Source: Candidatus Velamenicoccus archaeovorus | GTDB taxonomy: Bacteria; Omnitrophota; Gorgyraeia; Velamenicoccales; Velamenicoccaceae | Assembly: GCF_004102945.1 (NCBI RefSeq) | Contig: NZ_CP019384.1 | Span: forward strand, 1,710,001 to 1,742,000 | Direction of reading: 5' to 3' | Length of the DNA: 32,000 nucleotides | In this document: piece by piece, positions 8,699-25,085 of the stretch | How positions within the stretch are numbered: the first letter of the stretch is position 1 | How the letters are laid out: the number at the start of each line of letters is the position of its first letter | The notes under the pieces: model-generated | What the model was told of the DNA's origin: nothing | Database searches by the model: none | The model's input: the letters and a program-made list of their open reading frames with translations, nothing else | Position numbers and translations under genes: made by a program

Positions 8699-8727
8699 AT
8701 TATACCCTGAGATGGAGGGATTTTGAA
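8699..8727 (-). promoter_or_regulatory. Sigma70-like promoter for the 8675->2398 operon (TTCAAA - 17 nt - TATAAT)
   Basis: On the minus strand the -35 TTCAAA is at 8727..8722 and the -10 TATAAT at 8704..8699, with a 17-nt spacer. The -10 lies ~24 nt upstream of ATG 8675. Confidence 0.45.
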
Positions 8728-8766
8728 TAGAAATCACGGGGAAGGACCCCCTCCGCTTGACCACTC

Positions 8767-8826
8767 GAAAATTTCGTGCACGGTATAACCGTGCGTGAAA
8801 TTTTCTTCGTAAGCTTCGGGGTGGTT
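8767..8826. repeat. Left terminal module: GAAAATTT-ended hairpin (8767-8805) + TT + 19-mer CGTAAGCTTCGGGGTGGTT (8808-8826)
   Basis: 17-bp stem (gaaaatttcgtgcacgg / ccgtgcgtgaaattttc) with a 5-nt loop. It has two G:T pairs as read on the plus strand. The 19-mer recurs inverted at 9417-9435 (18/19 identical). Confidence 0.8.
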
Positions 8827-8911
8827 CACACGGCTATACAACCGTGCGGGATAATCCCTGTCTAGTAACAGACAGACATAAGTCGTGGCCTCCCTGAAAG
8901 GCCACCTCTTT

Positions 8912-8941
8912 CTACCCCGATTCGCCAAAGACGCTTCGTAA
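8912..8941 (+). repeat. 30-nt direct repeat, copy 1 (ctaccccgattcgccaaagacgcttcgtaa)
   Basis: 27/30 identical to 9092-9121. A nearby 17-mer, cataagtcgtggcctcc (8877-8893), recurs as cataagccgtggcctca (9224-9240). Confidence 0.75.
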
Positions 8942-9091
8942 GACGATAAACGACATGATCCACCCACCACTACTGCGTCCGCCGCCACTTCTTCGGCGGA
9001 CGGCCGACGATGCTTTAGTGGCGGCCTTTGGCGGGTTTTGTTGGGTCAGATAACTTATGTTCGGTATCGCTTTATAATTCTCTTTTATAGA

Positions 9092-9158
9092 CTACCCTGA
9101 TTCGCCAGATACGCTTCGTAAATTTTTTTACGAAAATTTACTTCGCTGGCGAACAGGG
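9092..9158 (+). repeat. 30-nt direct repeat, copy 2 (9092-9121), which forms the left arm of a long nested hairpin (9095-9158)
   Basis: Outer stem CCCTG(A)TTCGCCAG / CTGGCGAACAGGG. Inner 9-bp stem GTAAATTTT / AAAATTTAC. Read directly from the sequence. Confidence 0.75.
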
Positions 9159-9164
9159 TTAATT

Positions 9165-9184
9165 CCTGCCTGCCGGCAGGCAGG
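9165..9184. repeat. 20-nt perfect palindrome CCTGCCTGCCGGCAGGCAGG, copy 1
   Basis: Exact self-complementary 20-mer. An identical copy lies at 12154-12173. Confidence 0.9.
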
Positions 9185-9242
9185 CGGCCAACGACTTATG
9201 TTCACTCAGCTTACGCTTCGTTCCATAAGCCGTGGCCTCATT

Positions 9243-9272
9243 AAAAAAAGAAGGCTGGGGTTAGCCAGCCTT
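9243..9272 (-). terminator. Rho-independent terminator (minus strand)
   Basis: Minus strand reads AAGGCTGG-CTAACC-CCAGCCTT followed by CTTTTTTTAA: an 8-bp stem, a 6-nt loop and a T7 tract. It lies ~270 nt downstream of the stop at 9545. Confidence 0.7.
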
Positions 9273-9416
9273 GATGAGTGAAGCGCTTAGTGCGACTCTC
9301 TCGCACCCGCTCCTTTCTTGTATAGACAAGTTTACGGATTTTGCCAGGCCAAACAAGGGAAAAAACAGCTTTTCAAGAAAGCGTTTTCTTGTTTAGTCCG
9401 CCCTAAGGGCGGACTA

Positions 9417-9509
9417 AACAACCCCGAAGCTTACGCAGAAGATTTCGTGCCGGATGGCCGTCCTGGCCGGCTACGCCAGGCCGACGGCCTACCCTGGCAT
9501 GAAATCTTC
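9417..9509. repeat. Right terminal module: inverted 19-mer (9417-9435) + CA + GAAGATTT-ended hairpin (9438-9509)
   Basis: aacaaccccgaagcttacg is the reverse complement of the left 19-mer with one mismatch. The hairpin arms are gaagatttcgtgccgg / cctggcatgaaatcttc (one G:T pair, one bulge). They enclose an inner GC hairpin ggccgtcctggc...gccaggccgacggcc. Confidence 0.8.
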
Positions 9510-9544
9510 AAGTGCTTAAGCAAGGGGCTAAATCAAAAAACTGC

Positions 9545-14463: not shown

Positions 14464-14550
14464 CTTCGGGGACGTCGCTTTCCCGCCTGGCGCCCTTCGG
14501 GCTTGGCGGGATCCCGCCCAAGCGCAAGCGACGGCGGGAAGCCTGGTTTA
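14464..14550 (+). other. Stranded copy of the tRNA-Asp leader plus nt 1-24, split by a 59-nt twin-hairpin insert
   Basis: cttcGGGGACGTCGCTT (14464-14480) and AGCCTGGTTTA (14540-14550) are identical to 14832-14848 and 14849-14859 of the intact gene. The insert at 14481-14539 sits at the D-stem/D-loop junction. Confidence 0.85.
14481..14539. repeat. Twin-hairpin element E1 (TCCCGCC..GCGGGA | TCCCGCC..GGCGGGA, centre GGGATCCC)
   Basis: Two tandem hairpins use the same stem sequence. Same architecture and size as 15289-15349. Confidence 0.8.
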
Positions 14551-14590
14551 TTATTCTGGCTGTGATCCGAAAGAATAGTTCTTTTGTACT

Positions 14591-14860
14591 ATGCATTATG
14601 TGTATATAATCAGGAGCCAGAAGAACCATCAGTTTTATATAGGTTCAACTAAGGATGTTCGTGATCGCATCAAACAACACGAGCGAAGCGAGACAAAGTC
14701 GCTGAAAAATAAAGGTCCATTTGAGATAGTTCGTATCGAAGAGTTTGTTACAAAGACGGAAGCCCTAAAAAGAGAGAAGCAGATAAAACGCTATAAGGGC
14801 GGCCGCGCATTTAAGAAACTTATCGCAAAAACTTCGGGGACGTCGCTTAGCCTGGTTTAA
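14591..14860 (+). CDS. GIY-YIG nuclease family protein (small, UPF0213-like)
   Basis: 89-aa ORF: MHYVYIIRSQKNHQFYIGSTKDVRDRIKQH ... EEF ... ALKREKQIKRYKG (GIY, YIG, Arg and Glu blocks). AT-rich. The only convincing plus-strand CDS. Its last 9 codons and TAA stop lie inside tRNA-Asp. Confidence 0.85.
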   Translation: MHYVYIIRSQKNHQFYIGSTKDVRDRIKQHERSETKSLKNKGPFEIVRIEEFVTKTEALKREKQIKRYKGGRAFKKLIAKTSGTSLSLV

Positions 14861-14914
14861 GGCCCTTGATTGTCGATCAAGTGATCGTGGGTTCAAATCC
14901 CATCGTCCCCGCCA
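14836..14914 (+). tRNA. tRNA-Asp (anticodon GTC), CCA encoded
   Basis: Manual cloverleaf. Acceptor GGGGACG/CGTCCCC. D-stem GCTT/AGGC with an 11-nt loop. Anticodon stem CTTGA/TCAAG with loop TTGTCGA. 5-nt variable loop. T-arm GTGGG-TTCAAAT-CCCAT. Discriminator G, then CCA. Confidence 0.9.
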
Positions 14915-15479: not shown

Positions 15480-15938
15480 TTACGCTCCGGAAAATTTGCC
15501 CAGGGCGATAAGCGAAAAGACCATGACAAAGAGGGCGACGGTCTCCGTGATACCGAGCACGGCCAGATAGTTGCCGAAACCTTTGCCCGTCTCGCCCATC
15601 GCGTCGCAGGCCACAGCCGCGCACCGACCCTGCCATAAGGCGGACAAACCAATGGCCAGGCCGCAGAAAGCGCCGATACCCCACAGATACTGTCCCTTGT
15701 TAGCCAACTCCAGGACCTTGTTCATGACGATGTTGCCGTAGATCGTCTGCGTCAGGGGCGCGCCGACAAGCGCGACGAGAAGAAAAGACGCAGTCTTGTT
15801 CTGCGAAAAGTTCTTTTTCCAGGCGCCGATGGCCGCCATGCCGGCCGTGCCTGCGCCGATCGCAGAGCCGCAGGCCGCCAGGGCCAATATGAGCGCCGCC
15901 CCCAAATCTTTAAATTGCACCAGCACATTTCCTTCCAT
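15480..15938 (-). CDS. atpK: V-type ATP synthase subunit K (proteolipid, duplicated 4-TM form)
   Basis: 152-aa ORF with an AGGAGGG RBS. Gly/Ala-rich TM helices. Conserved carboxylate in the last helix (GITETVALFVMV). Confidence 0.9.
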   Translation of the reverse strand: MEGNVLVQFKDLGAALILALAACGSAIGAGTAGMAAIGAWKKNFSQNKTASFLLVALVGAPLTQTIYGNIVMNKVLELANKGQYLWGIGAFCGLAIGLSALWQGRCAAVACDAMGETGKGFGNYLAVLGITETVALFVMVFSLIALGKFSGA

Positions 15939-16005: not shown

Positions 16006-16059
16006 GAAAATTTTTGCCGACTGGCCAGCTTCGCTGGCCGAGTCGTGGCAAAAATTTTC
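16006..16059. repeat. GAAAATTT-ended hairpin in the atpI-atpK spacer
   Basis: gaaaatttttgccgactggccagc-ttc-gctggccgagtcgtggcaaaaattttc: a long imperfect stem. Its termini resemble the hairpins at 8767-8805 and 9438-9509. Confidence 0.75.
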
Positions 16060-16086: not shown

Positions 16087-17862
16087 TTATTCTTCTGCAA
16101 GCGGCTTATACGGCGTCCCCGACCACGTCACGGCCGCGTGCCCCGAAAACTCCAGCACATTCAACCGGACGCCATGCACAAGGACCGACATGGGACCCAG
16201 GACGATGTTAAGCGCGTGGCCGGCGATGACGATCGCCACGGCCCCGATGATGCCGATGATCCCCGATGCGGCGGCGCCGGCCGCCATGAAATTAAAAGCG
16301 TCGGCAATGGCGATGGTCGCCAGCCCGACGGCAAAAAGACGGATGTAAGAGACGACATCCGTAAAATTATTCACGAGGCTCAAGGCCAGCGTCCCCAGCC
16401 CGGAGCCGACGGCCCTGAAGATATTCTTCTGGAAATTGACGAACACGACCACGAGCGCGATCCCGGCGATGATGAAATATTTCCCCGCGGAAGGGAAAGG
16501 ATCGCCCAACAGCAGGGTCTTGGCCAGGAAAAACGCCGCCCAGATGATGGACAGCCACCCCAGCTCCGCCACGGCGACCGGCGACGGCAGAAGGACGGCA
16601 AAGCGCCACAGGTGCGCGATCGTCAAATGGACCGCGCCGATCCCGAAACAGAGCGCCTGGACAAAACCGGCATCATTAAGTTGAGGCAGCGGGGCCTTGA
16701 TGCCCAAGTTCACGAGCCAGGTCTGGCCGAAGAATACGCCGCTCAAGGCCCCCCAAACAATGGCGCATGAGCTCAACACATACATAAGAAAGAACGGCGC
16801 CTTGTTCTGCACGTTTTTGCCGAACTTGCGATACGCCCAGAGGGTCAAAAGAAAATAAACCAGGCCGTATCCGGCGTCGCCGATCAGGATGCCGAAAAAC
16901 AGGCTGAAAAAAAGCAAAAACGTCGGACTGATATCGAGTTCCTTATATCCAGGGGTGATCTCAAGAAGTTTGAGGACCGGCTGGATAAGAGAGATCCAAC
17001 GGGGATTGCGCAACAAGGTCGGGACGCGGTCTTCCGGCGAAGGATCGTCTGTAAAAAGGCCCCACCCCTCCTTTTGGGCGGCGCCGGACAACACCTCCAT
17101 CTGATCAGACGGCGCATATCCCGTCAGATACGTCAAAGCCCCTTCCTGCCCCATGCCGGCGACGGCCTTGGCAAACTCAAGGTCTCTCTCTAAAACTTTC
17201 TTCTGGCGCAAAAAGCATTCTTTGTGACACTGGACAGCCCGGCCTTCCCGGACCAGCTGCTCCATGACCTGTCGGTCTTCTTCGCGGCGTTTTTTCATGG
17301 CCGCCAGGCCCGTCTTCGGCGGGACGATCTCCTTGAAAGGGACAGCGACGGGCTCGCGCGAGACCACGGCGCATAGCGCGCTGCCCTGGTGCGTGCGCAG
17401 GACCTCCACAACAATGTCCCGGGGAAACTTCTTCAGATCGGAGACAGGCGCCTGATACAATCGCACATAGATACCACGGTCGCGCAACGTCTTTAAAAGC
17501 TGGGGGTCAAAATCGCCCCACGGCTCCCATTCGCCGATATTGACCGCCAGACTCCGGGAAAATTCCTTGAGATGCTGATAGCGCTTCCCCAGATCGATGA
17601 CATGAAGCACATCCTGTTTCCAGTCTTTCTCTTTCTTCGAAGCCGCAGGGGCTTTCGTCTCATCGGCAAAGATCTCTTCCTGCAGGACGACCAGGGCCTC
17701 GTCCAAAAGTTCGATGTCGCGCTGGCATGCCTCGACATCCTTGCCTGCCGGCGTTCTGTCGTGCTCGACGTGGACGACGCCCAGCGAACGCAGGCGCTCC
17801 ACCAGCCGCTGCGCGTCCTTGGCCTCGACGATAATGCCGACTTTTTTCATAGGTACAATCAT
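16087..17862 (-). CDS. atpI: V-type ATP synthase subunit I (a-subunit)
   Basis: 591-aa ORF with a cytoplasmic N-terminal half and a polytopic C-terminal half. The essential Arg context VVSYIRLFAVGLAT is present. Confidence 0.9.
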   Translation of the reverse strand: MIVPMKKVGIIVEAKDAQRLVERLRSLGVVHVEHDRTPAGKDVEACQRDIELLDEALVVLQEEIFADETKAPAASKKEKDWKQDVLHVIDLGKRYQHLKEFSRSLAVNIGEWEPWGDFDPQLLKTLRDRGIYVRLYQAPVSDLKKFPRDIVVEVLRTHQGSALCAVVSREPVAVPFKEIVPPKTGLAAMKKRREEDRQVMEQLVREGRAVQCHKECFLRQKKVLERDLEFAKAVAGMGQEGALTYLTGYAPSDQMEVLSGAAQKEGWGLFTDDPSPEDRVPTLLRNPRWISLIQPVLKLLEITPGYKELDISPTFLLFFSLFFGILIGDAGYGLVYFLLTLWAYRKFGKNVQNKAPFFLMYVLSSCAIVWGALSGVFFGQTWLVNLGIKAPLPQLNDAGFVQALCFGIGAVHLTIAHLWRFAVLLPSPVAVAELGWLSIIWAAFFLAKTLLLGDPFPSAGKYFIIAGIALVVVFVNFQKNIFRAVGSGLGTLALSLVNNFTDVVSYIRLFAVGLATIAIADAFNFMAAGAAASGIIGIIGAVAIVIAGHALNIVLGPMSVLVHGVRLNVLEFSGHAAVTWSGTPYKPLAEE

Positions 17863-17885
17863 GCTACGGCACCTTTAATGAGCGG

Positions 17886-17946
17886 ACAATTTACGCGAAG
17901 CGAATAATATGAGTAAGCGTAAATTGTAGTCCCGCACCTGCGGGAC
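17886..17946. other. Two adjacent perfect hairpins upstream of atpI
   Basis: ACAATTTACGC (17886-17896) pairs with GCGTAAATTGT (17917-17927): 11 bp with a 20-nt loop. GTCCCGC-acct-GCGGGAC lies at 17929-17946. Confidence 0.7.
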
Positions 17947-17959
17947 GTCCGCGAATTAA

Positions 17960-18227
17960 ACCCAGCACGAATTTTATATTTTTAATGATTCTGCTATCCG
18001 CGCTTTTAAATATGTCCTTGCTTGACCGTATTGCTTTAGCTTTGTCTCTCTTCTCCTTGCGTCAACTTCCGAAAGAAAAGCCTCATAATAAACGAGCTTC
18101 GATGCCGCACGATCTTTATCGTGCTGCCGGATACGTCTTTGTAAATCGCTTGTATAACCGTAATAAAAACTCGCCGCTATCTTTATCTCTTAAAACATAC
18201 ACGTAGTACATAAAATTCGTGCTGGGT
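17960..18227 (-). mobile_element. 268-bp GIY-YIG mini-element bounded by a perfect 18-bp inverted repeat
   Basis: ACCCAGCACGAATTTTAT (17960-17977) is the exact reverse complement of ATAAAATTCGTGCTGGGT (18210-18227). The AT-rich interior is filled entirely by a GIY-YIG reading frame. Both the start codon and the stop codon overlap the repeat arms. Confidence 0.7.
17974..18211 (-). pseudogene. GIY-YIG nuclease gene with a +1 frameshift in a T5 run
   Basis: Frame 0 reads MYYVYVLRDKDSGE and then stops after 29 codons. The next frame continues FYYGYTSDLQRRIRQHDKDRAASKLVYYEAFLSEVDARRRETKLKQYGQARTYLKARIAESLKI*. Removing one T from GAGTTTTTATTAC (plus-strand A5 at 18165-18169) restores a 78-aa GIY-YIG protein. 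Confidence 0.75.
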
Positions 18228-18236
18228 AGCTTCGGG

Positions 18237-18863
18237 CTAATGGCTTATGCTCGCTAACGCTCCATAAGCCATGCCCTCAGTTATCTTCCTCTTGGCGATC
18301 TTGGAACGGCCGACCGCATTCGTCATCTGGTCGCCGATGTAAATCTTGATCAGGCGGATCGCCTCTTCGGCTTCGGGGATCTTGACCTTCTCGAAAAGGT
18401 TGACGCGCTGGGTCGTGATCCGCAATTCCTGGCGCAGGATGGCCTGCGCTTCATTGAGGACTTCGATTTCTTTGCGCAAAGACACGATTTCCCTCAAGGC
18501 ATCCACGGCCTGGTCCACCCACAAGGGCGTCAGGAACAAATCGTATTCGGCAGGGTCAAAGACAAGGCGTTCAAAGACGGGCAGATCGACGCCGGCGACG
18601 TTACGCATCCCGCGCACGACCTCTTTGGGTCTCAGCCACGCCTCCAGAGAGACGCTTTTATCCGTCAGCAGGCCTGCCCACGCCTGGCGCTGCGCGACCT
18701 TCGACTTCTCTTTGGTCCGCCGGTCCTCCAGGGCCGCGTTCAAATGCAGGATCTCCAGCTGCAGCTGTTGTTTTTTCAGCTGGAGAGTCGGCAGATAACG
18801 CTCGTAGCTCTTGAGGGCATCCCGTTGGCGCTTTAATTCGCCTTTGGTCAGCTTAATCTTCAT
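18237..18863 (-). CDS. atpD: V-type ATP synthase subunit D
   Basis: 208-aa ORF: MKIKLTKGELKRQRDALKSYERYLPTLQLKKQQLQLEI..., a coiled-coil rotor subunit pattern. The last 12 codons are encoded by a perfect 10-bp hairpin (18240-18272). Confidence 0.85.
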   Translation of the reverse strand: MKIKLTKGELKRQRDALKSYERYLPTLQLKKQQLQLEILHLNAALEDRRTKEKSKVAQRQAWAGLLTDKSVSLEAWLRPKEVVRGMRNVAGVDLPVFERLVFDPAEYDLFLTPLWVDQAVDALREIVSLRKEIEVLNEAQAILRQELRITTQRVNLFEKVKIPEAEEAIRLIKIYIGDQMTNAVGRSKIAKRKITEGMAYGALASISH

Positions 18864-18959
18864 CTTATTTCTTGGGGCCCGCCCCGTTAGAAAAAATTTC
18901 CCGTTACGTTTTTTATCCTGCCAATAATACCGCCCACAACCAAAGCTTCTGTCTCAAAC

Positions 18960-20267
18960 CTACTCCATATTTTTTCTAACGGGCCAGTATTTCTCGATCA
19001 GGGCCTTCTTGATGCCGGTCTCTTCCGGCGAAAAACATTCGGCCAGGATCTCCCACCCCCGGTCCAGCGCGCGCTCAAGCGAAATATTGACCTCCAGCGA
19101 CATCATCTGGCTTTCAAAGAGTCCGCCGTAGCGCAGGAGTTTCTTGTCCCAGTTCGACATCTGGAACCCCATGGCCTGCTTCTCCAGGGTCTCCCTGTAG
19201 CTGGCAAACAACTGGATCATGGTGTCCATGATCGTGCGGTGGTCGTCGCGCGTGGCGCCGTTGACCTGTTGTTTGAGACGGGAGAGCGACCCAAAGGGCT
19301 CAATCACCTTGTTTTTGAGATAAAACTGCCCTTCGGTGATATATCCCGTGTTATCCGGCACCGGGTGCGTCACGTCGTCGCCTGGCATGGTCGTCGCGGC
19401 CAGGATCGTGATGGAACCCGCCGTATCGAAATCAACGGCCTTCTCGTAACGGCTGGCGAGCTGGCTGTAGAGGTCTCCCGGATAGCCGCGGTTCGACGGC
19501 ACCTGTTCCATAGTGATGGAGACTTCTTTCAAGGCGTCGCAGAAATTCGTCATATCGGTCAAAAGGACCAGGACCCTCTTTCCGGCCAGGGCGGATTGCT
19601 CGGCAACCGCCAGGCTCAAATCGGGCACAAGCAAACATTCGACCGTCGGGTCTGCGGCCGTATGGATGAAGAATATCGCGCGTGACAACGCGCCGGCCTC
19701 CTCCAGGGTGTCGCGGAAAAAAAGATAATCGTCGTGTTTCAGGCCCATGCCTCCCAGGATGATGATATCCACCTGCGCCTGGATGGCGATACGGGCCAAC
19801 AATGCATTATAGGGCTCGCCGGCAATCGAAAAAATCGGCAGTTTTTGCGATTCGACCAGCGAGTTGAAAACGTCGATCATGGGAATATTGGTGCGGATCA
19901 TCCGGCGGGGGATGATGCGCTTGACCGGGTTGACCGATGGCCCGCCGATATCCACCATGTTCTCTGAAAGCGCCGGGCCGCGGTCCAACGGCTCGCCCGA
20001 CCCGTTGAAGATGCGGCCTAAAAGGTTTTCGCCGGAGGCCACGCGCATGGGATGCCCCAGAAACCTGACCTGGTCGCCGGTAGAGACGCCGCGGCTGCCG
20101 GCAAACACCTGCAATGACACCCGCCTGCCGTCAATACGGATGACCTGCGCCAGAGAAACGCCGCCCTTGGTCATGACCTGCGCGATCTCCATGGATCCGA
20201 TGCCGTCGGCCTCGACGGTGATGACATCGCCTGCGATCTGGATGATGTTCGTATAAACTTTATGCAC
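18960..20267 (-). CDS. atpB: V-type ATP synthase subunit B
   Basis: 435-aa ORF whose GTG start overlaps the atpA stop by 8 nt. [26 protein letters not shown] and [20 protein letters not shown] are typical. Confidence 0.9.
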
Positions 20268-22017
20268 GTTCGCCGTCCTTTTTGGATTTAAGCTGGGTCT
20301 CTATCAAAGCCTGGATCTCGTCTTGTATCTTTTTGTATTCGCCAGTGTCCTGCGCCGCCGAGTTCCAGCCGCGGAAGAGCTGACGCAATTGGTGAAAAAA
20401 GTGCAGAGCGGCTTCCTTGTCCGTAAACGCGAAATCCGCCTGCAGGACGTTTTTGTAGATAAAGCCGTAGACGGCCTTCTGGCGCTCGGCGCTTGTCGCC
20501 TCATCGACAGGGTCGAAGGCGTTCTGCTGCAGATAGACGAAATCGAAAAATTCGCCTTTGAGATAATCCACGTAGTCCTTGAGGGACGTGCCTTCCTCGC
20601 CGATGACTTTCATCATCTGGCCGACATCGTGGCTCTTGCGCAGGATCGCGTGGCCGGCGGCGATCTCGCGGACGTCGATGATGCTGGGATACTTGCTCCA
20701 GCTGATCAAAGGGTCTATCGCCGGATACCGGCGGGCGTCCGATCGCTCGCGCGAGAGGCCGTGGAAGGCGCCGACGACCTTGAGGGTCGCCTGCGTCACC
20801 GGTTCTTCGAAATTGCCGCCCGCAGGGCTCACCGTGCCGCCGATCGTAACAGACCCCATTGTGCCGTCATAGAGCCTGACGACGCCGGCGCGCTCGTAAA
20901 AAGAAGCGATGCGCGACTCAAGGTAGGCCGGAAAGGCCTCTTCGCCGGGGATCTCTTCCAGGCGGCCCGACATCTCCCGCATGGCCTGCGCCCACCGCGA
21001 GGTCGAATCCGCCAAAAGCATGACATTCAACCCCATCTGGCGGTAGTATTCGGCGATGGTCACGGCCGTATAGACGCTGGATTCCCTGGCGGCGACGGGC
21101 ATGGAGCTCGTATTGCAGATGATGACGGTCCTGTCGCTCAAGGGCTTGCCGGTCTTGGGGTCTTTTAATTCCGGAAACGTCTTTAACGTCTCGACGACCT
21201 CGCCAGCGCGCTCGCCGCAGGCGGCGATGATGACGATATCCACGTCCGCGTGTCGGCTGATGAGCTGCTGCAACACGGTCTTTCCGGCGCCGAACGGCCC
21301 GGGAACGCAATAGGTGCCGCCGCGCGCCACAGGAAACAGGGAATCGATCAGGCGCATCTTTGTCACCAGAGGTTCCGTCGGCATGAACTTTTCGGCGTAG
21401 GCCTTGATGGCGACCTTGACCGGCCAGGTCTGGACCATCCGGCATTCGACGAGCTTGCCGTTGGCGTCCTTGAGGCGCGCCACGACATCTTTCAAGGTAT
21501 AGCGCCCGGCACCAACGATCTCGGCGACCTCCCACTCCCCTTTCAGGTCGAACGGCGCCATGATGGCATGCTTAAAAATCTTTTCCGGCACGGTGCCGAG
21601 CTTGTCGCCCGCCCTGACCTTTTGACCGGCTTTTGCCGATGGCGTAAAATCCCATTGGCCGGCGTCCGGCAGAGGGTCTTTATAAACGCCTCTCTTGAGG
21701 AAAAATCCGCATTCCTTGGCCAAATCAGGCAATGGGTTCTGCAGGCCGTCGAAGATCTGACCCAGCAGGCCCGGGCCGAGCTCGACGGACAACAAGGCGT
21801 CGGTGAACGTCACGGCGTCGCCGACCTTGACCCCTGTCGTGCTTTCATACACCTGGGCCTCGGCCTTGTCGCCGCGCACGCGGATCACTTCGGCCTTCAG
21901 GCGGTCGGCGCCGCAGGCGACATACGCCACTTCATTCTGGATGACATAATCATCAAAGGTGATCGCCACCATGTTTCCGTTGATGGCCGCCACGCGGCCT
22001 TTTCTTTCAGATGCCAT
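20260..22017 (-). CDS. atpA: V-type ATP synthase subunit A (catalytic)
   Basis: I prefer ATG 22017 ([24 protein letters not shown]). The track's upstream start would translate the heptamer array. Walker [10 protein letters not shown]. The length (585 aa) leaves no room for an intein. Confidence 0.9.
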
Positions 22018-22040
22018 AATAACCTCGCATAAGTAAAAAA

Positions 22041-22131
22041 CAAACTCAAATAACCAATATCCAAGAACCAATAACCAATCAATGACCAGTAATCAAATTT
22101 CAATTATCAAACATTCCTTTGGTCATTCCAT
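22041..22131. repeat. 13-unit 7-nt periodic array filling the DUF2764-atpA spacer
   Basis: CAAACTC AAATAAC CAATATC CAAGAAC CAATAAC CAATCAA TGACCAG TAATCAA ATTTCAA TTATCAA ACATTCC TTTGGTC ATTCCAT. Shares caaactc, atatccaa, caaacat and tggtcattc strings with the element at 6520-6654. Confidence 0.75.
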
Positions 22132-22665
22132 TCAGTTCACGACCAACGTCTCTTCCAGGATCTTTGTCCTGTCCGCCGAAGCGACGCGCTCCCAGCGTTC
22201 CAAGATCAACAGCTTCAGGCCGTAAGCCAAAAGGGCCTCGAAATCGAAATAATGCCCGAAGGATAATTCGTCGAGTTTTTTCCATCGTTCTTCGTCCAGG
22301 ATCTTTTCGGCTTCAAGAGGCGCCGGCTGTCTGACCGCGTTAAGCGCCACCTGCACCACCCAGGAATCCCACCAGCCGTCATGTCGCAGGTATCTGCCGG
22401 CATCCGTCTGTTTGCGGGCCGAGCGCAGCTTGACCAATTCGTTGCGCAGGACGACCTCAAAAAGCTTCCAGGCCTTTAGCAGAGGAATGTCCGCCGGAGC
22501 GCCGGCGCTCCAGTCCGCGCCTTCAAGAGACGCCAAGACGGAAATCTCTTCTTCGCTGATCAAACCCCTGCAGCCCTCGAGGAATTTGGCATAGCTTAAC
22601 GGCAATTTTTGCCCGAAGTGCAGCATCGGTAACGCGGAAACAACATATGTGTAATGTCCGGCCAT
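22132..22665 (-). CDS. DUF2764 family protein (V-ATPase operon-associated; shorter than I recall for the family)
   Basis: 177-aa ORF. Its position between the E and A subunit genes matches the E-DUF2764-A-B-D-I-K operon layout I recall from Bacteroidota and Chlamydiae. The call rests mainly on synteny plus the general helical character. Confidence 0.6.
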   Translation of the reverse strand: MAGHYTYVVSALPMLHFGQKLPLSYAKFLEGCRGLISEEEISVLASLEGADWSAGAPADIPLLKAWKLFEVVLRNELVKLRSARKQTDAGRYLRHDGWWDSWVVQVALNAVRQPAPLEAEKILDEERWKKLDELSFGHYFDFEALLAYGLKLLILERWERVASADRTKILEETLVVN

Positions 22666-22718: not shown

Positions 22719-23315
22719 TTATTTCAAAAGCTCTGCCAGCTTCGGACGCACCAGGCCGGAAAGGTAGGCGGCCAGGGCCTTGTCGCTGAAATCAAAATGC
22801 GATTTGCCCGCGTCAAAACTGATGATAAACCCGCCGGCGACCTCGTCGGTTGACTTCAGGACGATGTCCCGCTTCAGCTCGTCCTTCAGACGGGAAAGAA
22901 ACCCCTGTTCGAGTTTCCTCCGGTCGCCGTCCTGCAAAGACACCGTCACCTGACCCGCATCCTGGCCGCCGTATTGCTGGACGGCCAGCTTGACCAACGC
23001 CGCCAGCTCCTGGGGCCCAAGCGCCTGGCGCACGTCGAGCGTGACGACCTTCTCAAGCGTCGTCAGGATCTGTTTCTTCAGCGACAAGACAAGGTCGCGG
23101 CCGGCCTGTTTGAGGGCGGCCTCCGAGGCGTCCTTTTCCTGACGGATCTTCTCTTGGGCGTCATCCAGCAATTTTCTGGCGTCGCTTTCCGCGCGCGCGA
23201 TGATCTCATCCGCCTGCTTCTGAGCGCGCGCCTCGATCTCTCCGGCGGCCTTCCGGGCGGACTCCACGCCTTCCTTTTGGATTTTATCTAACAATGCTTT
23301 GAGTTCCTGTGCCAT
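22719..23315 (-). CDS. atpE: V-type ATP synthase subunit E
   Basis: I prefer ATG 23315 (AGGAG 6 nt upstream): MAQELKALLDKIQKEGVESARKAAGEIEARAQKQADEII... A long charged N-terminal helix plus a C-terminal globular domain is typical of the peripheral stalk subunit. Confidence 0.85.
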   Translation of the reverse strand: MAQELKALLDKIQKEGVESARKAAGEIEARAQKQADEIIARAESDARKLLDDAQEKIRQEKDASEAALKQAGRDLVLSLKKQILTTLEKVVTLDVRQALGPQELAALVKLAVQQYGGQDAGQVTVSLQDGDRRKLEQGFLSRLKDELKRDIVLKSTDEVAGGFIISFDAGKSHFDFSDKALAAYLSGLVRPKLAELLK

Positions 23316-23385
23316 AATCAACTCCTATCCGTATCAAAGTATCAGAGTGTCAAAGAAAAAAGACGACGGGTCTTGGTGCCGAGTT

Positions 23386-24164: not shown

Positions 24165-25085
24165 TCAGGAGACATTCAGGCTCCCAATAAGCTCTTTGAC
24201 GTCTTTGTAGTGGTGTTGCGACAGATAAGAGGCAATGCCCTCAACGACTTCGAGAGGAGTGCGGGGGTCGACGAAATTGGCGGTTCCGACAGCGACGGCA
24301 GTGGCGCCCGCGATCAGGAACTCGACCGCGTCGCGGGCATTCATGATACCACCCATGCCGACGATAGGCAAACTGATTTTGTTGTAGACCTGCCAGACCA
24401 TGCGCAGTGCCATGGGCTTGATCGCCGGGCCGCTCAAGCCGCCCGTGATATTACCCAGGACGGGCCTGCGGGTCTCTACGTCGACGGCCATGCCCAAAAA
24501 GGTATTGACGAGACTGACCGCATCGGCGCCGCCATCCTGGACGGCCCGGGCGATCCTCGTGATGTCGCTGACGTTCGGCGACAATTTGACGATCAGGGTC
24601 CGGTCCGTCTTCTGGCGCACATCCCGGACGACCTTGTGCGTCAGTTCCTCGTCCTGGGAGATGATCTTGTCCTTATATTCGATGTTCGGGCAGGAAATGT
24701 TGAGCTCGTAGGCCGCGACTTCAGGGTAGGCATTGAGCGCCTCGATGACCTCGCCGTATTCGTTGCTCGTCTCGCCGCCGACGCTCACAATCAACTTTGT
24801 CCCCGCATCCCGGCACGCAGGCAGCTTCTCCTGAATAAAATCCTCCAGTCCTTCGTTCTGCAGGCCGATGGCATTGAGCATCCCGCCGGTCGTCTCGCAG
24901 ATGCGCGGCGGCCGGTTGCCTTCCCGGCGGTTCTTGGTGATGGTCTTCGTTACGATCGCGCCCAGCCGGGCGGGATCGACGTAATCCGCATATTCCCGTC
25001 CGTAACCAAACGTGCCCGACGCCACCATGACGGGATTTTGCAGCTTCAAACTGCCGATGGCCACTTTAAGGTTCGGCTTACTCAT
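24165..25085 (-). CDS. pyrD: Dihydroorotate dehydrogenase, catalytic subunit (class 1B)
   Basis: The track ORF (377 aa) carries a spurious Arg/Pro-rich 71-aa extension. ATG 25085 gives MSKPNLKVAIGSLKLQNPVMVASGTFGYG. The active-site motif NISCPN is present. Confidence 0.9.
   Translation of the reverse strand: MSKPNLKVAIGSLKLQNPVMVASGTFGYGREYADYVDPARLGAIVTKTITKNRREGNRPPRICETTGGMLNAIGLQNEGLEDFIQEKLPACRDAGTKLIVSVGGETSNEYGEVIEALNAYPEVAAYELNISCPNIEYKDKIISQDEELTHKVVRDVRQKTDRTLIVKLSPNVSDITRIARAVQDGGADAVSLVNTFLGMAVDVETRRPVLGNITGGLSGPAIKPMALRMVWQVYNKISLPIVGMGGIMNARDAVEFLIAGATAVAVGTANFVDPRTPLEVVEGIASYLSQHHYKDVKELIGSLNVS

Follow-up and report, generated by a model that had tools for sequence, protein, structure and literature searches.

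The closest described relatives of the locus reported here are the Ssn enzymes, single-domain GIY-YIG nucleases of ∼94 residues (CDD cd10448) whose genes are flanked by hairpin repeats, termed NTS or SRM, that are also dispersed over the genome (Chenal et al. 2025, Nat Commun, PMC11893778). These enzymes bind a hairpin in single-stranded DNA (ssDNA) and cut just upstream of it, with no action on double-stranded DNA (dsDNA) or RNA, and cleavage persists when the hairpin is split over two oligonucleotides; the authors remark on the likeness of the NTS-ssnA-NTS arrangement to an insertion sequence (PMC11893778). GIY-YIG open reading frames (ORFs) have also been described in non-intron insertions of the rRNA genes of the candidate phyla radiation (CPR), which are possibly intervening sequences cleaved by RNase III; arms, frames and copies outside rRNA are undescribed there (Tsurumaki et al. 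2024, PMC11270868). Here we analyse a 32,000-nucleotide (nt) stretch of the Candidatus Velamenicoccus archaeovorus genome (NZ_CP019384.1, positions 1,710,001 to 1,742,000; hereafter the window), in which a GIY-YIG ORF lies inside a long inverted repeat between the atpD and atpI genes of a V-type ATPase operon.

We conclude, with a probability of roughly 0.6, that this ORF and its hairpins represent one copy in a family of compact mobile elements, palindromic and composite in structure, which occur in Omnitrophota and CPR bacteria and carry an Ssn-like hairpin nuclease. Members share one architecture, their stems are complementary and carry compensatory changes, they occupy unrelated non-coding sites, they occur as presence/absence polymorphisms and as deletion derivatives, and their catalytic domain is intact. 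We found no description of such an architecture in the literature beyond the two papers cited above, and neither the architecture nor its connection with the intervening sequences of rRNA seems to have been described.

An original prediction, made from the letters of the window alone, had described a perfect 18-bp repeat around the GIY-YIG ORF, with the start codon overlapping the upstream arm and the stop codon inside the downstream one, and all of this is borne out on the operon strand. The two arms, separated by 232 nt, are 100% complementary (coordinates of the features are collected in Table 1); the ATG (18211–18209, minus strand) takes the final two bases of the upstream arm, and the TAA (17976–17974) falls within the downstream arm. 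The interior is AT-rich, again as predicted, with a G+C fraction of 0.40–0.45 over 17850–18300 compared with 0.52–0.66 in most flanking windows. The arm 18-mer has no further match in the window at up to three mismatches (chance expectation 0.01; none of 100 shuffles reaches two). Rfam models found only two tRNAs above threshold in the window, and no known RNA family covers the element; scans of 17600–18600 for sigma-70-type promoter and intrinsic-terminator consensus sequences gave no match.

The frame is broken in a run of five T residues, where the break had been predicted. Removal of one T restores a 78-residue protein that matches the PF01541 GIY-YIG profile over positions 1–76 of 78 (E = 3.9e-12), which places the protein in the superfamily of GIY-YIG nucleases. 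Its AlphaFold model (predicted local distance difference test score 92.7) is a bare β-β-α-β-α-α domain, for which the best structural match in the PDB is UPF0213 protein BH0048, followed more weakly by the catalytic domain of I-TevI; the protein contains no DNA-binding or other second domain. Family proteins are likewise single-domain and mostly 74–88 residues long, and residues of catalytic type are invariant in 57 family sequences, among them Tyr3, Tyr5, Tyr16, Gly18, Arg26, His30, Glu43 and Glu55.

An intact protein (P0001), 100% identical to the repaired 78 residues, is encoded on a sister contig (L001) from an NCBI metagenome-assembled genome (MAG) that also bears the name Candidatus Velamenicoccus archaeovorus. 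Its alignment with the window covers 11,859 bases at 98.9% identity, with a sole gap where a T4 run stands in place of T5; the element and both spacers are the same apart from this run and one linker base. We conclude that the extra T either inactivated the gene very recently, in this strain only, or is a sequencing error in the homopolymer. Both readings had been foreseen and both are kept, since the sister has T4 and an intact gene. The third reading, slippage-dependent expression, is unlikely: the T run is not conserved and every other recovered family ORF lies in a single frame, and programmed frameshifting was rejected on these grounds. For annotation, a frameshifted nuclease gene of this kind would otherwise go unnoticed or be labelled a pseudogene.

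The prediction took the arms and the nuclease to be a complete, minimal selfish cassette. A mobile kind of insert is still indicated, whereas the extent must be revised, conserved hairpin frames to the left and right of the arms enlarging the unit to ∼412 bp (18283–17872, minus strand). Its three parts are a hairpin frame on the left, a central stem that encloses the ORF, and a second hairpin frame on the right. The left frame corresponds to the TCAAATGARGCC..ACTTAYGG..CRTAAGT..GGCTGAATTTGA frame that is conserved 5′ of the arms in other loci. Family models of AtpD stop at residue 196 of 208, and AtpD in element-free relatives has 203 residues, from which it follows that the last ∼12 codons of atpD and its TAG stop come from the element; the C-terminus annotated for AtpD here is element-derived. 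In other loci (L002, L025, L017 and others) the left frame often begins with a Shine-Dalgarno-like sequence and an ATG (..GGAGGTCAAATGAAG..), and a mini-ORF of ∼15 codons (MKPKLTERSE.K...) can be read that ends just 5′ of the central stem; atpD of the window passes through the left frame in a register different from that of the mini-ORF.

The right frame abuts the atpI Shine-Dalgarno sequence. Exact patterns were too strict for this part of the element, and a looser frame pattern with a shuffle control was used. The pattern TTYAATTC..CTCATTRA, which the window frame fits, occurs in 20 loci. In copies of the Omnitrophota type, the right frame runs from TTCAATTCGCGC through one or two hairpins (..ACTTATGTTCAC..GTTCCATAAGT..) to GCGCTCATTGA and then to the Shine-Dalgarno sequence of the next gene, and its main hairpin, hairpin C, shows compensatory changes in 8 of 10 pairs. 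When inverted, the left flank resembles the right one as a diverged copy, the mean identity over these flanks of 70–90 nt being 0.69 compared with 0.56 for shuffled sequences. A 436-nt transcript of the locus is predicted to fold with −139.8 kcal/mol (z = −5.74), and a 20-bp stem closing the ORF, together with separate left and right modules, appears in both the minimum free energy and the centroid structure, the right module being Y-shaped.

The frame pattern matches the window twice, compared with 0.055 matches expected from shuffles. An ORF-less relative elsewhere in the window joins a central-type hairpin to a copy of the right frame (TTAATTC..GC hairpin..GGCCAACGACTTATGTTCAC..GTTCCATAAGCCGTGGCCTCATTAA), which can be aligned with right frames from other loci and shares their pairing. 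It lies in a gene-free region (8700–9520) packed with hairpins (8767–8805, 9093–9158, 9159–9244, 9389–9421 and 9438–9509), in which GATTCGCCA.A.ACGCTTCGTAA segments are repeated at ∼8920 and ∼9100; the region resembles a cluster of nested palindromes.

Searches found 104 homologues, those at 50–67% identity coming from Omnitrophota and Patescibacteria/CPR assemblies and from many metagenomes. A pattern scan of the JGI metagenomes confirmed at least 587 loci, and, at E ≤ 1e-10, an exhaustive profile search returned 1,101 cluster representatives. In 63 of 67 distinct loci the arms on either side of the ORF form a stem of 13 bp or more. A full copy spans ∼370–410 bp and comprises the left frame, a central perfect stem with the nuclease gene in its loop, and the inverted, diverged right frame. 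The start codon overlaps or adjoins one arm, or lies 12–24 nt further in for copies embedded in rRNA genes, and the stop codon is within, or a few bases from, the other arm. The start codon of the nuclease marks the inner end of the perfect stem, and copies of the operon type have no Shine-Dalgarno sequence for the ORF.

Comparison of the arms shows that compensatory changes maintain their pairing. The outer part of the central stem carries the motif (A)CCC[A/C/T][G/A]C[A/C]C paired with its complement, and the inner part covaries freely. Several arm classes can be distinguished (ACCCAGCAC[N]AATTTT, ACCCCACACCCAG, ACCCCGCCCTTTCT, ACCCTGCACCTTT, CCCAGCAC, CCCCACAC, CCCCGCCC and others); that of the window is common to L002, L099 and L106, and a G:C pair of the window stem becomes T:A or C:G in other loci. 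Across 22 distinct arm pairs, 97.3% of the alignment cells are standard-paired compared with 74.8% when partners are shuffled, none of 500 shuffles reaching the observed value. Compensatory changes are found in 9 of the 15 stem pairs, and sliding the partner by 1–3 columns reduces pairing to ∼40–50%. The first eight positions served as the anchor of the alignment and are biased; positions 9–15 did not, and hold most of the covariation. Uniqueness of the arm 18-mer in the genome had been put forward as grounds for refuting an insertion, but it is too strict a test because the arms differ between copies yet stay complementary.

The sites occupied by the family are transcribed and non-coding. They comprise spacers within operons, immediately 5′ of a Shine-Dalgarno sequence, the tips of 23S rRNA helices, and the 3′ flanks of tRNA genes. 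The first contexts inspected were downstream of the a subunit of an F-type ATP synthase, between the genes for SxtJ and a DUF5989 protein, and between those for an amino-acid permease and an RRM protein, all of them co-directional with the adjacent genes, and in each an inverted repeat brackets the ORF. Rfam models place six homologous ORFs within large-subunit rRNA, in sense orientation (L033, L070, L078, L079, L087 and L093), and three directly 3′ of tRNA genes (L074, L082 and L084). The ORFs embedded in 23S genes are bracketed by the same CCCAGCAC/GTGCTGGG arms, and the likeness to ORF-bearing rRNA intervening sequences, originally offered as a parallel, is thus stronger than that. In five rRNA cases (L033, L079, L086, L087 and L093) a conserved stretch of 23S sequence comes directly after the right arm; we take it to lie just 3′ of helix 25 (E. 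coli), a classical site of intervening sequences. The window copy itself lies between atpD and atpI, not in an rRNA helix; the family nevertheless includes intervening-sequence members.

Derivatives that lack the nuclease gene retain the arms and frames of the family. One 23S gene (L093, 1638–4290) contains, at different positions, four inserts with CCC(A/C)GCACCC..GGGTGC(T/G)GGG arms, three without an ORF and one with a GIY-YIG ORF. Elsewhere, ORF-less hairpins with family arms and frames adjoin ORF-bearing copies, some of them nested in the right frame of another copy (L018, L030), and in one derivative (L059) the ORF is reduced to its first and last codons.

Comparisons between relatives indicate that the element is an insertion and not an ancestral gene, as had been predicted. 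In two relatives with 90% AtpD identity (L097, L098) the atpD stop codon overlaps the atpI start codon (..GGTATGATAGTGCCTATGAAG..) and there is no spacer, whereas two at 93% (L095, L096) have an unrelated spacer of ∼100 nt with other small hairpins. A more distant relative (L099, 81% AtpD identity) shares the left hairpin and the left arm, after which only a remnant of the ORF with an internal deletion is left, so that the element is found at this junction in the 81% relative although it is missing from those at 90–93%. Homology between the AAGGTGCCGTAGCATG stretch that precedes atpI and AAGGAGCCGCGGTATG in the empty allele places the end of the insert just 5′ of the host Shine-Dalgarno sequence.

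A second locus gives a comparison on an otherwise identical background. Contigs with identical SxtJ carry, between SxtJ and the DUF5989 gene, either a 395-nt spacer with the element (L112) or a 120-nt spacer with an unrelated long palindrome (L114), and both alleles occur in one metagenome sample (L005, L114). The alleles are 100% identical over 1,892 nt upstream, diverge from the third base of the stop codon, and over the initial 109 nt downstream are only 93.6% identical. Such divergence on the downstream side has the look of co-conversion, in which the element arrived by recombination with a diverged donor. Because empty and alternative alleles exist at the two junctions, we rejected an ancestral resident gene. 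The palindrome of L114 (1893–2012), AT-rich and composed of GTAGATAGTAGGTAGTAGGTAG-type repeats, has no relation to the GIY-YIG element.

If it acts as the Ssn enzymes do, the nuclease would bind hairpins of its own element in ssDNA and nick next to them. Repair or recombination by the host would then produce a new copy, either at an empty homologous site or at the tip of another hairpin, the latter route being suggested by the nested copies and the rRNA helix-tip sites. The same stems would fold in the host transcript, where the insert could be tolerated, or cut out in the manner of rRNA intervening sequences, and where the stem would sequester the start codon of the nuclease. That RNase III may process the window stem, as originally proposed, gains plausibility from the rRNA-embedded relatives. 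We advance only tentatively the further proposal that these are the smallest self-propagating bacterial DNA elements, ∼390 bp in length, which would spread by insertion or homing of hairpin into hairpin, driven by nicks that the Ssn-like nuclease makes in extruded ssDNA hairpins, with the RNA stem removed or tolerated, and which would be the long-sought mobile source both of the non-intron intervening sequences in CPR and Omnitrophota 23S genes and of operon-spacer palindromes.

Several observations weigh against a mobile element with an Ssn-like nuclease. The window copy may be dead. At both loci where filled and empty alleles were compared, the whole spacer differs and no clean insertion is seen, a pattern that recombinational replacement explains at least as well as transposition does. 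Terminal inverted repeats are present, and gene-bearing and gene-less copies have the same ends, as in insertion sequences and miniature inverted-repeat transposable elements (MITEs), but neither a target-site duplication constant in length or sequence across the aligned flanks nor a cut-and-rejoin enzyme was found. At the left end, the Shine-Dalgarno sequence (and ATG) of the downstream gene is repeated in some loci (the Shine-Dalgarno sequence in L017, L025, L069 and L072) and not in others. To our knowledge GIY-YIG enzymes only hydrolyse DNA, without strand transfer, and the element could not rejoin DNA alone. We infer, moreover, each of the proposed steps: the cutting of hairpins in ssDNA, processing by RNase III, and the way in which the element spreads. 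A scan for the arm 18-mer in contigs representing one genome per species gave ten single matches, nine of them unrelated and one a family member from another organism (L106), the source genome not being among the matches, and a scan of viral contigs for the arm..ORF..arm arrangement gave none. Strand-specific evidence from G:U pairs is thin and not independent; in a test of G:U against A:C asymmetry, meant to separate RNA or sense-strand folding from duplex symmetry, the true stem has almost no mismatches, and its few G:U pairs are partly inherited. Finally, the published SRM motif, searched as HGTCWYN(0-2)YYVSBRHN(0-5)WNVSBRGN(0-2)RNCYNB, has no match within 250 nt of 84 family ORFs and was rejected as the family's flanking repeat. 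Within the window it matches once, at 24606, a long way from the element; as a control, four sites were found around each of two rhizobial genes for 94-residue GIY-YIG proteins, on both sides of the gene, these controls being weak tblastn matches of the window protein.

The most serious alternative is that the elements act purely at the level of RNA, like intervening sequences, with stems that are RNase III-type sites, a nuclease ORF that is a passenger, and spread by recombination or horizontal transfer. The relatives at 23S positions, with the helix-25 region after the right arm, the strength of the predicted RNA fold and the few G:U pairs on the sense strand are all in keeping with this, and the CPR non-intron rRNA insertions are themselves thought to be cleaved by RNase III (PMC11270868). 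Orientation points the same way: among 48 cases on each side, the neighbouring long ORF shares the strand of the element in 42 upstream and in 43 downstream. An RNA-level explanation leaves unaccounted for, however, a nuclease gene with invariant catalytic residues in hundreds of copies, the conserved sequence of the outer 9 bp of the stem, and the retention of these frames in operon spacers, which have no need of excision. We consider it unlikely as the whole explanation, although it is compatible with a mobile, nuclease-bearing element. Like the 23S intervening sequences, the family has a long stem that closes the insert at helix tips, and some of its members are exactly such sequences; the window copy differs in lying in an mRNA spacer, and the arms, frames, ORF-less derivatives and non-rRNA copies of the family are undescribed in the intervening-sequence literature examined. 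The classical ORF-bearing intervening sequences of Leptospira and Coxiella encode an unrelated four-helix protein.

Comparison with the Ssn system bears on both the proposed nuclease and a second alternative. In each case a single-domain GIY-YIG protein of fewer than 100 residues is encoded between inverted hairpin-forming repeats. Gene-less repeats are dispersed over the genome in the Ssn system; for the present family, one ORF-less copy lies in the window and several in other loci. The family protein is shorter (74–88 residues compared with ∼94), lacking a ∼9-residue insert after the conserved His and a C-terminal tail, and its gene lies inside the loop of a long stem, with arms that overlap the start and stop codons and additional flanking hairpins. 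Family copies also occur in rRNA genes and at tRNA ends, and their hosts are Omnitrophota and CPR bacteria, compared with mainly Pseudomonadati for Ssn. The family profile scores 49.3 and 45.1 bits on the SRM-flanked rhizobial proteins, taken as proxies for Ssn, and 36.9 and 28.6 bits on UPF0213 structures. The family is probably related to Ssn-type proteins and, like them, associated with hairpins, but lacks the published repeat motif.

Given this similarity, the gene could instead be a resident with a domesticated host function, as proposed for Ssn and NTS in Neisseria in the control of incoming ssDNA, and the hairpins would then be dispersed regulatory or recognition repeats. Domestication is considered in the discussion of the Ssn paper (PMC11893778), and the related ORF-less hairpin frame elsewhere in the window would suit such a role. 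A resident function accords poorly with a gene that is absent from close relatives, decayed in another and possibly frameshifted in the window, with copies inside rRNA genes, and with nesting of the gene within one repeat unit rather than merely near repeats. We regard it as improbable.

Marginally less probable still is a classical free-standing homing endonuclease, which would cut the empty dsDNA junction of atpD and atpI and be copied by double-strand-break repair, the repeat being incidental. GIY-YIG is a known homing fold, with the catalytic domain of I-TevI among the structural neighbours, and the existence of empty and filled alleles among close relatives, as well as the lower identity of the downstream flank at SxtJ that resembles co-conversion, could be read in this way. 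Free-standing enzymes of this type (phage Seg proteins, I-TevI) exceed 200 residues, however, and have a DNA-binding domain and a specific host target, whereas the family protein is a bare catalytic domain of 78 residues. Neither a DNA-binding domain nor a host site common to all carriers was found; homologues with the same arms and frames lie at many unrelated host sites, which indicates that what is conserved is the element's hairpins and not a host target. An assembly or annotation artefact, for which the homopolymer frameshift is the sole support, is refuted for the element by the recurrence of the same 412-bp structure in the independent MAG contig and of its architecture in hundreds of metagenome contigs.

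The mobile element proposed here can also be set beside two other classes of palindromic repeat. With the REP/RAYT system (REPtron) and the IS200/IS605 elements, a comparison drawn for Ssn and resting on chemistry thought to depend on ssDNA hairpins (PMC11893778), it shares a nuclease gene with presumed cognate palindromes and apparently dispersed gene-less palindromes. Those systems use HUH tyrosine enzymes, which form covalent intermediates and rejoin DNA, as GIY-YIG enzymes cannot, and they differ further in that the two arms of the family pair with each other across the gene. The Correia or NEMIS elements of Neisseria are small palindromic MITEs of operon spacers that fold in mRNA and are reportedly cut by RNase III, and their copies are non-autonomous. 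The likeness lies in small palindromic inserts that occupy operon spacers and fold in the message; Correia elements have no ORF or known dedicated nuclease, whereas the present family has an autonomous-looking, nuclease-bearing parent.

What began as an oddity of one operon can now be defined as a family, its members numbering from hundreds to thousands and its architecture fixed and open to test. The family connects three subjects previously handled apart: the Ssn ssDNA nucleases and their hairpin repeats, the unexplained non-intron GIY-YIG insertions of CPR rRNA genes, and the small palindromes of operon spacers. The origin and movement of rRNA intervening sequences is an old open question, and it becomes directly testable here because the same arms occur with and without the nuclease, inside and outside rRNA. 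If the enzymes read their own stems, whose inner arms covary, the family would offer many natural pairs of nuclease and hairpin specificity for ssDNA tools, the application that motivates the work on Ssn (PMC11893778).

Table 1. Coordinates of the element, its ORF-less relative and the genes of the V-type ATPase operon in the window
Feature	Position	Strand	Details
Left hairpin frame	18228-18283	minus	TAACTGAGGGC..hairpin A..GCCCGAAGCT; hairpin A arms 18263-18272 and 18240-18249
Central stem, upstream (5′) arm	18210-18227	minus	18 nt, ACCCAGCACGAATTTTAT; ends with the A and T of the ATG
GIY-YIG ORF	17974-18211	minus	78 residues after removal of one T from the T5 run (18165-18169); unrepaired frame ends after 31 residues
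Central stem, downstream (3′) arm	17960-17977	minus	18 nt, ATAAAATTCGTGCTGGGT; includes the TAA stop
Right hairpin frame	17872-17959	minus	TTTAATTCGCGGAC, small GC hairpin 17946-17929, hairpin C (17917-17927 and 17886-17896), GTCCGCTCATTAAAG
ORF-less relative	9093-9244	plus	Central-type hairpin ACCCTGATTCGCCAG..CTGGCGAACAGGGT 9093-9158; right-frame copy 9159-9244
V-type ATPase subunit E	22719-23321	minus	
DUF2764 gene, V-type ATPase operon	22132-22665	minus	
atpA	20260-22071	minus	
atpB	18960-20267	minus	
atpD	18237-18863	minus	Stop TAG 18239-18237
atpI	16087-17862	minus	ATG at 17862; Shine-Dalgarno sequence AAGGTG
atpK	15480-15938	minus	

A second small GIY-YIG ORF is present in the window (14591–14860, plus strand; 89 residues, 54 bits with the family profile). 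Its final 25 nt overlap a tRNA-Asp gene (14836–14914), the 5′ part of which is repeated upstream of the ORF: 14464–14480 equals 14832–14848 exactly, and 14530–14550 resembles 14839–14859. The upstream copy is interrupted by a GC hairpin (TCCCGCC..GGCGGGA). The region 14464–14914 looks like a tRNA-targeted mini-insertion that rebuilt the 5′ end of the tRNA gene. Exactly at the 3′ end of the same tRNA-Asp gene (window 14914/14916), the sister MAG contig has a 5.1-kb island (L001, 13310–18427) that is not in the window. The island encodes a NucS_C-domain protein, a DUF87 (HerA-like) ATPase and ORFs of 497 and 114 residues, and may be a defence or integrative island.

Other spacers of the V-type ATPase operon are also palindromic. 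The atpI-atpK spacer (148 nt) contains a perfect 13-bp inverted repeat, GAAAATTTTTGCC / GGCAAAAATTTTC, at 16006–16059. The atpB-atpD spacer (96 nt; region 18864–18983) contains a perfect 15-bp inverted repeat (18883–18897 and 18969–18983), the outer arm of which overlaps the end of atpB. In one of the relatives at 93% AtpD identity (L095) the atpB-atpD spacing is only 13 nt, and the repeat in the window spacer is a second, ORF-less palindromic insert in the operon. Operon spacers in these genomes seem to be exchanged among different palindromic inserts.

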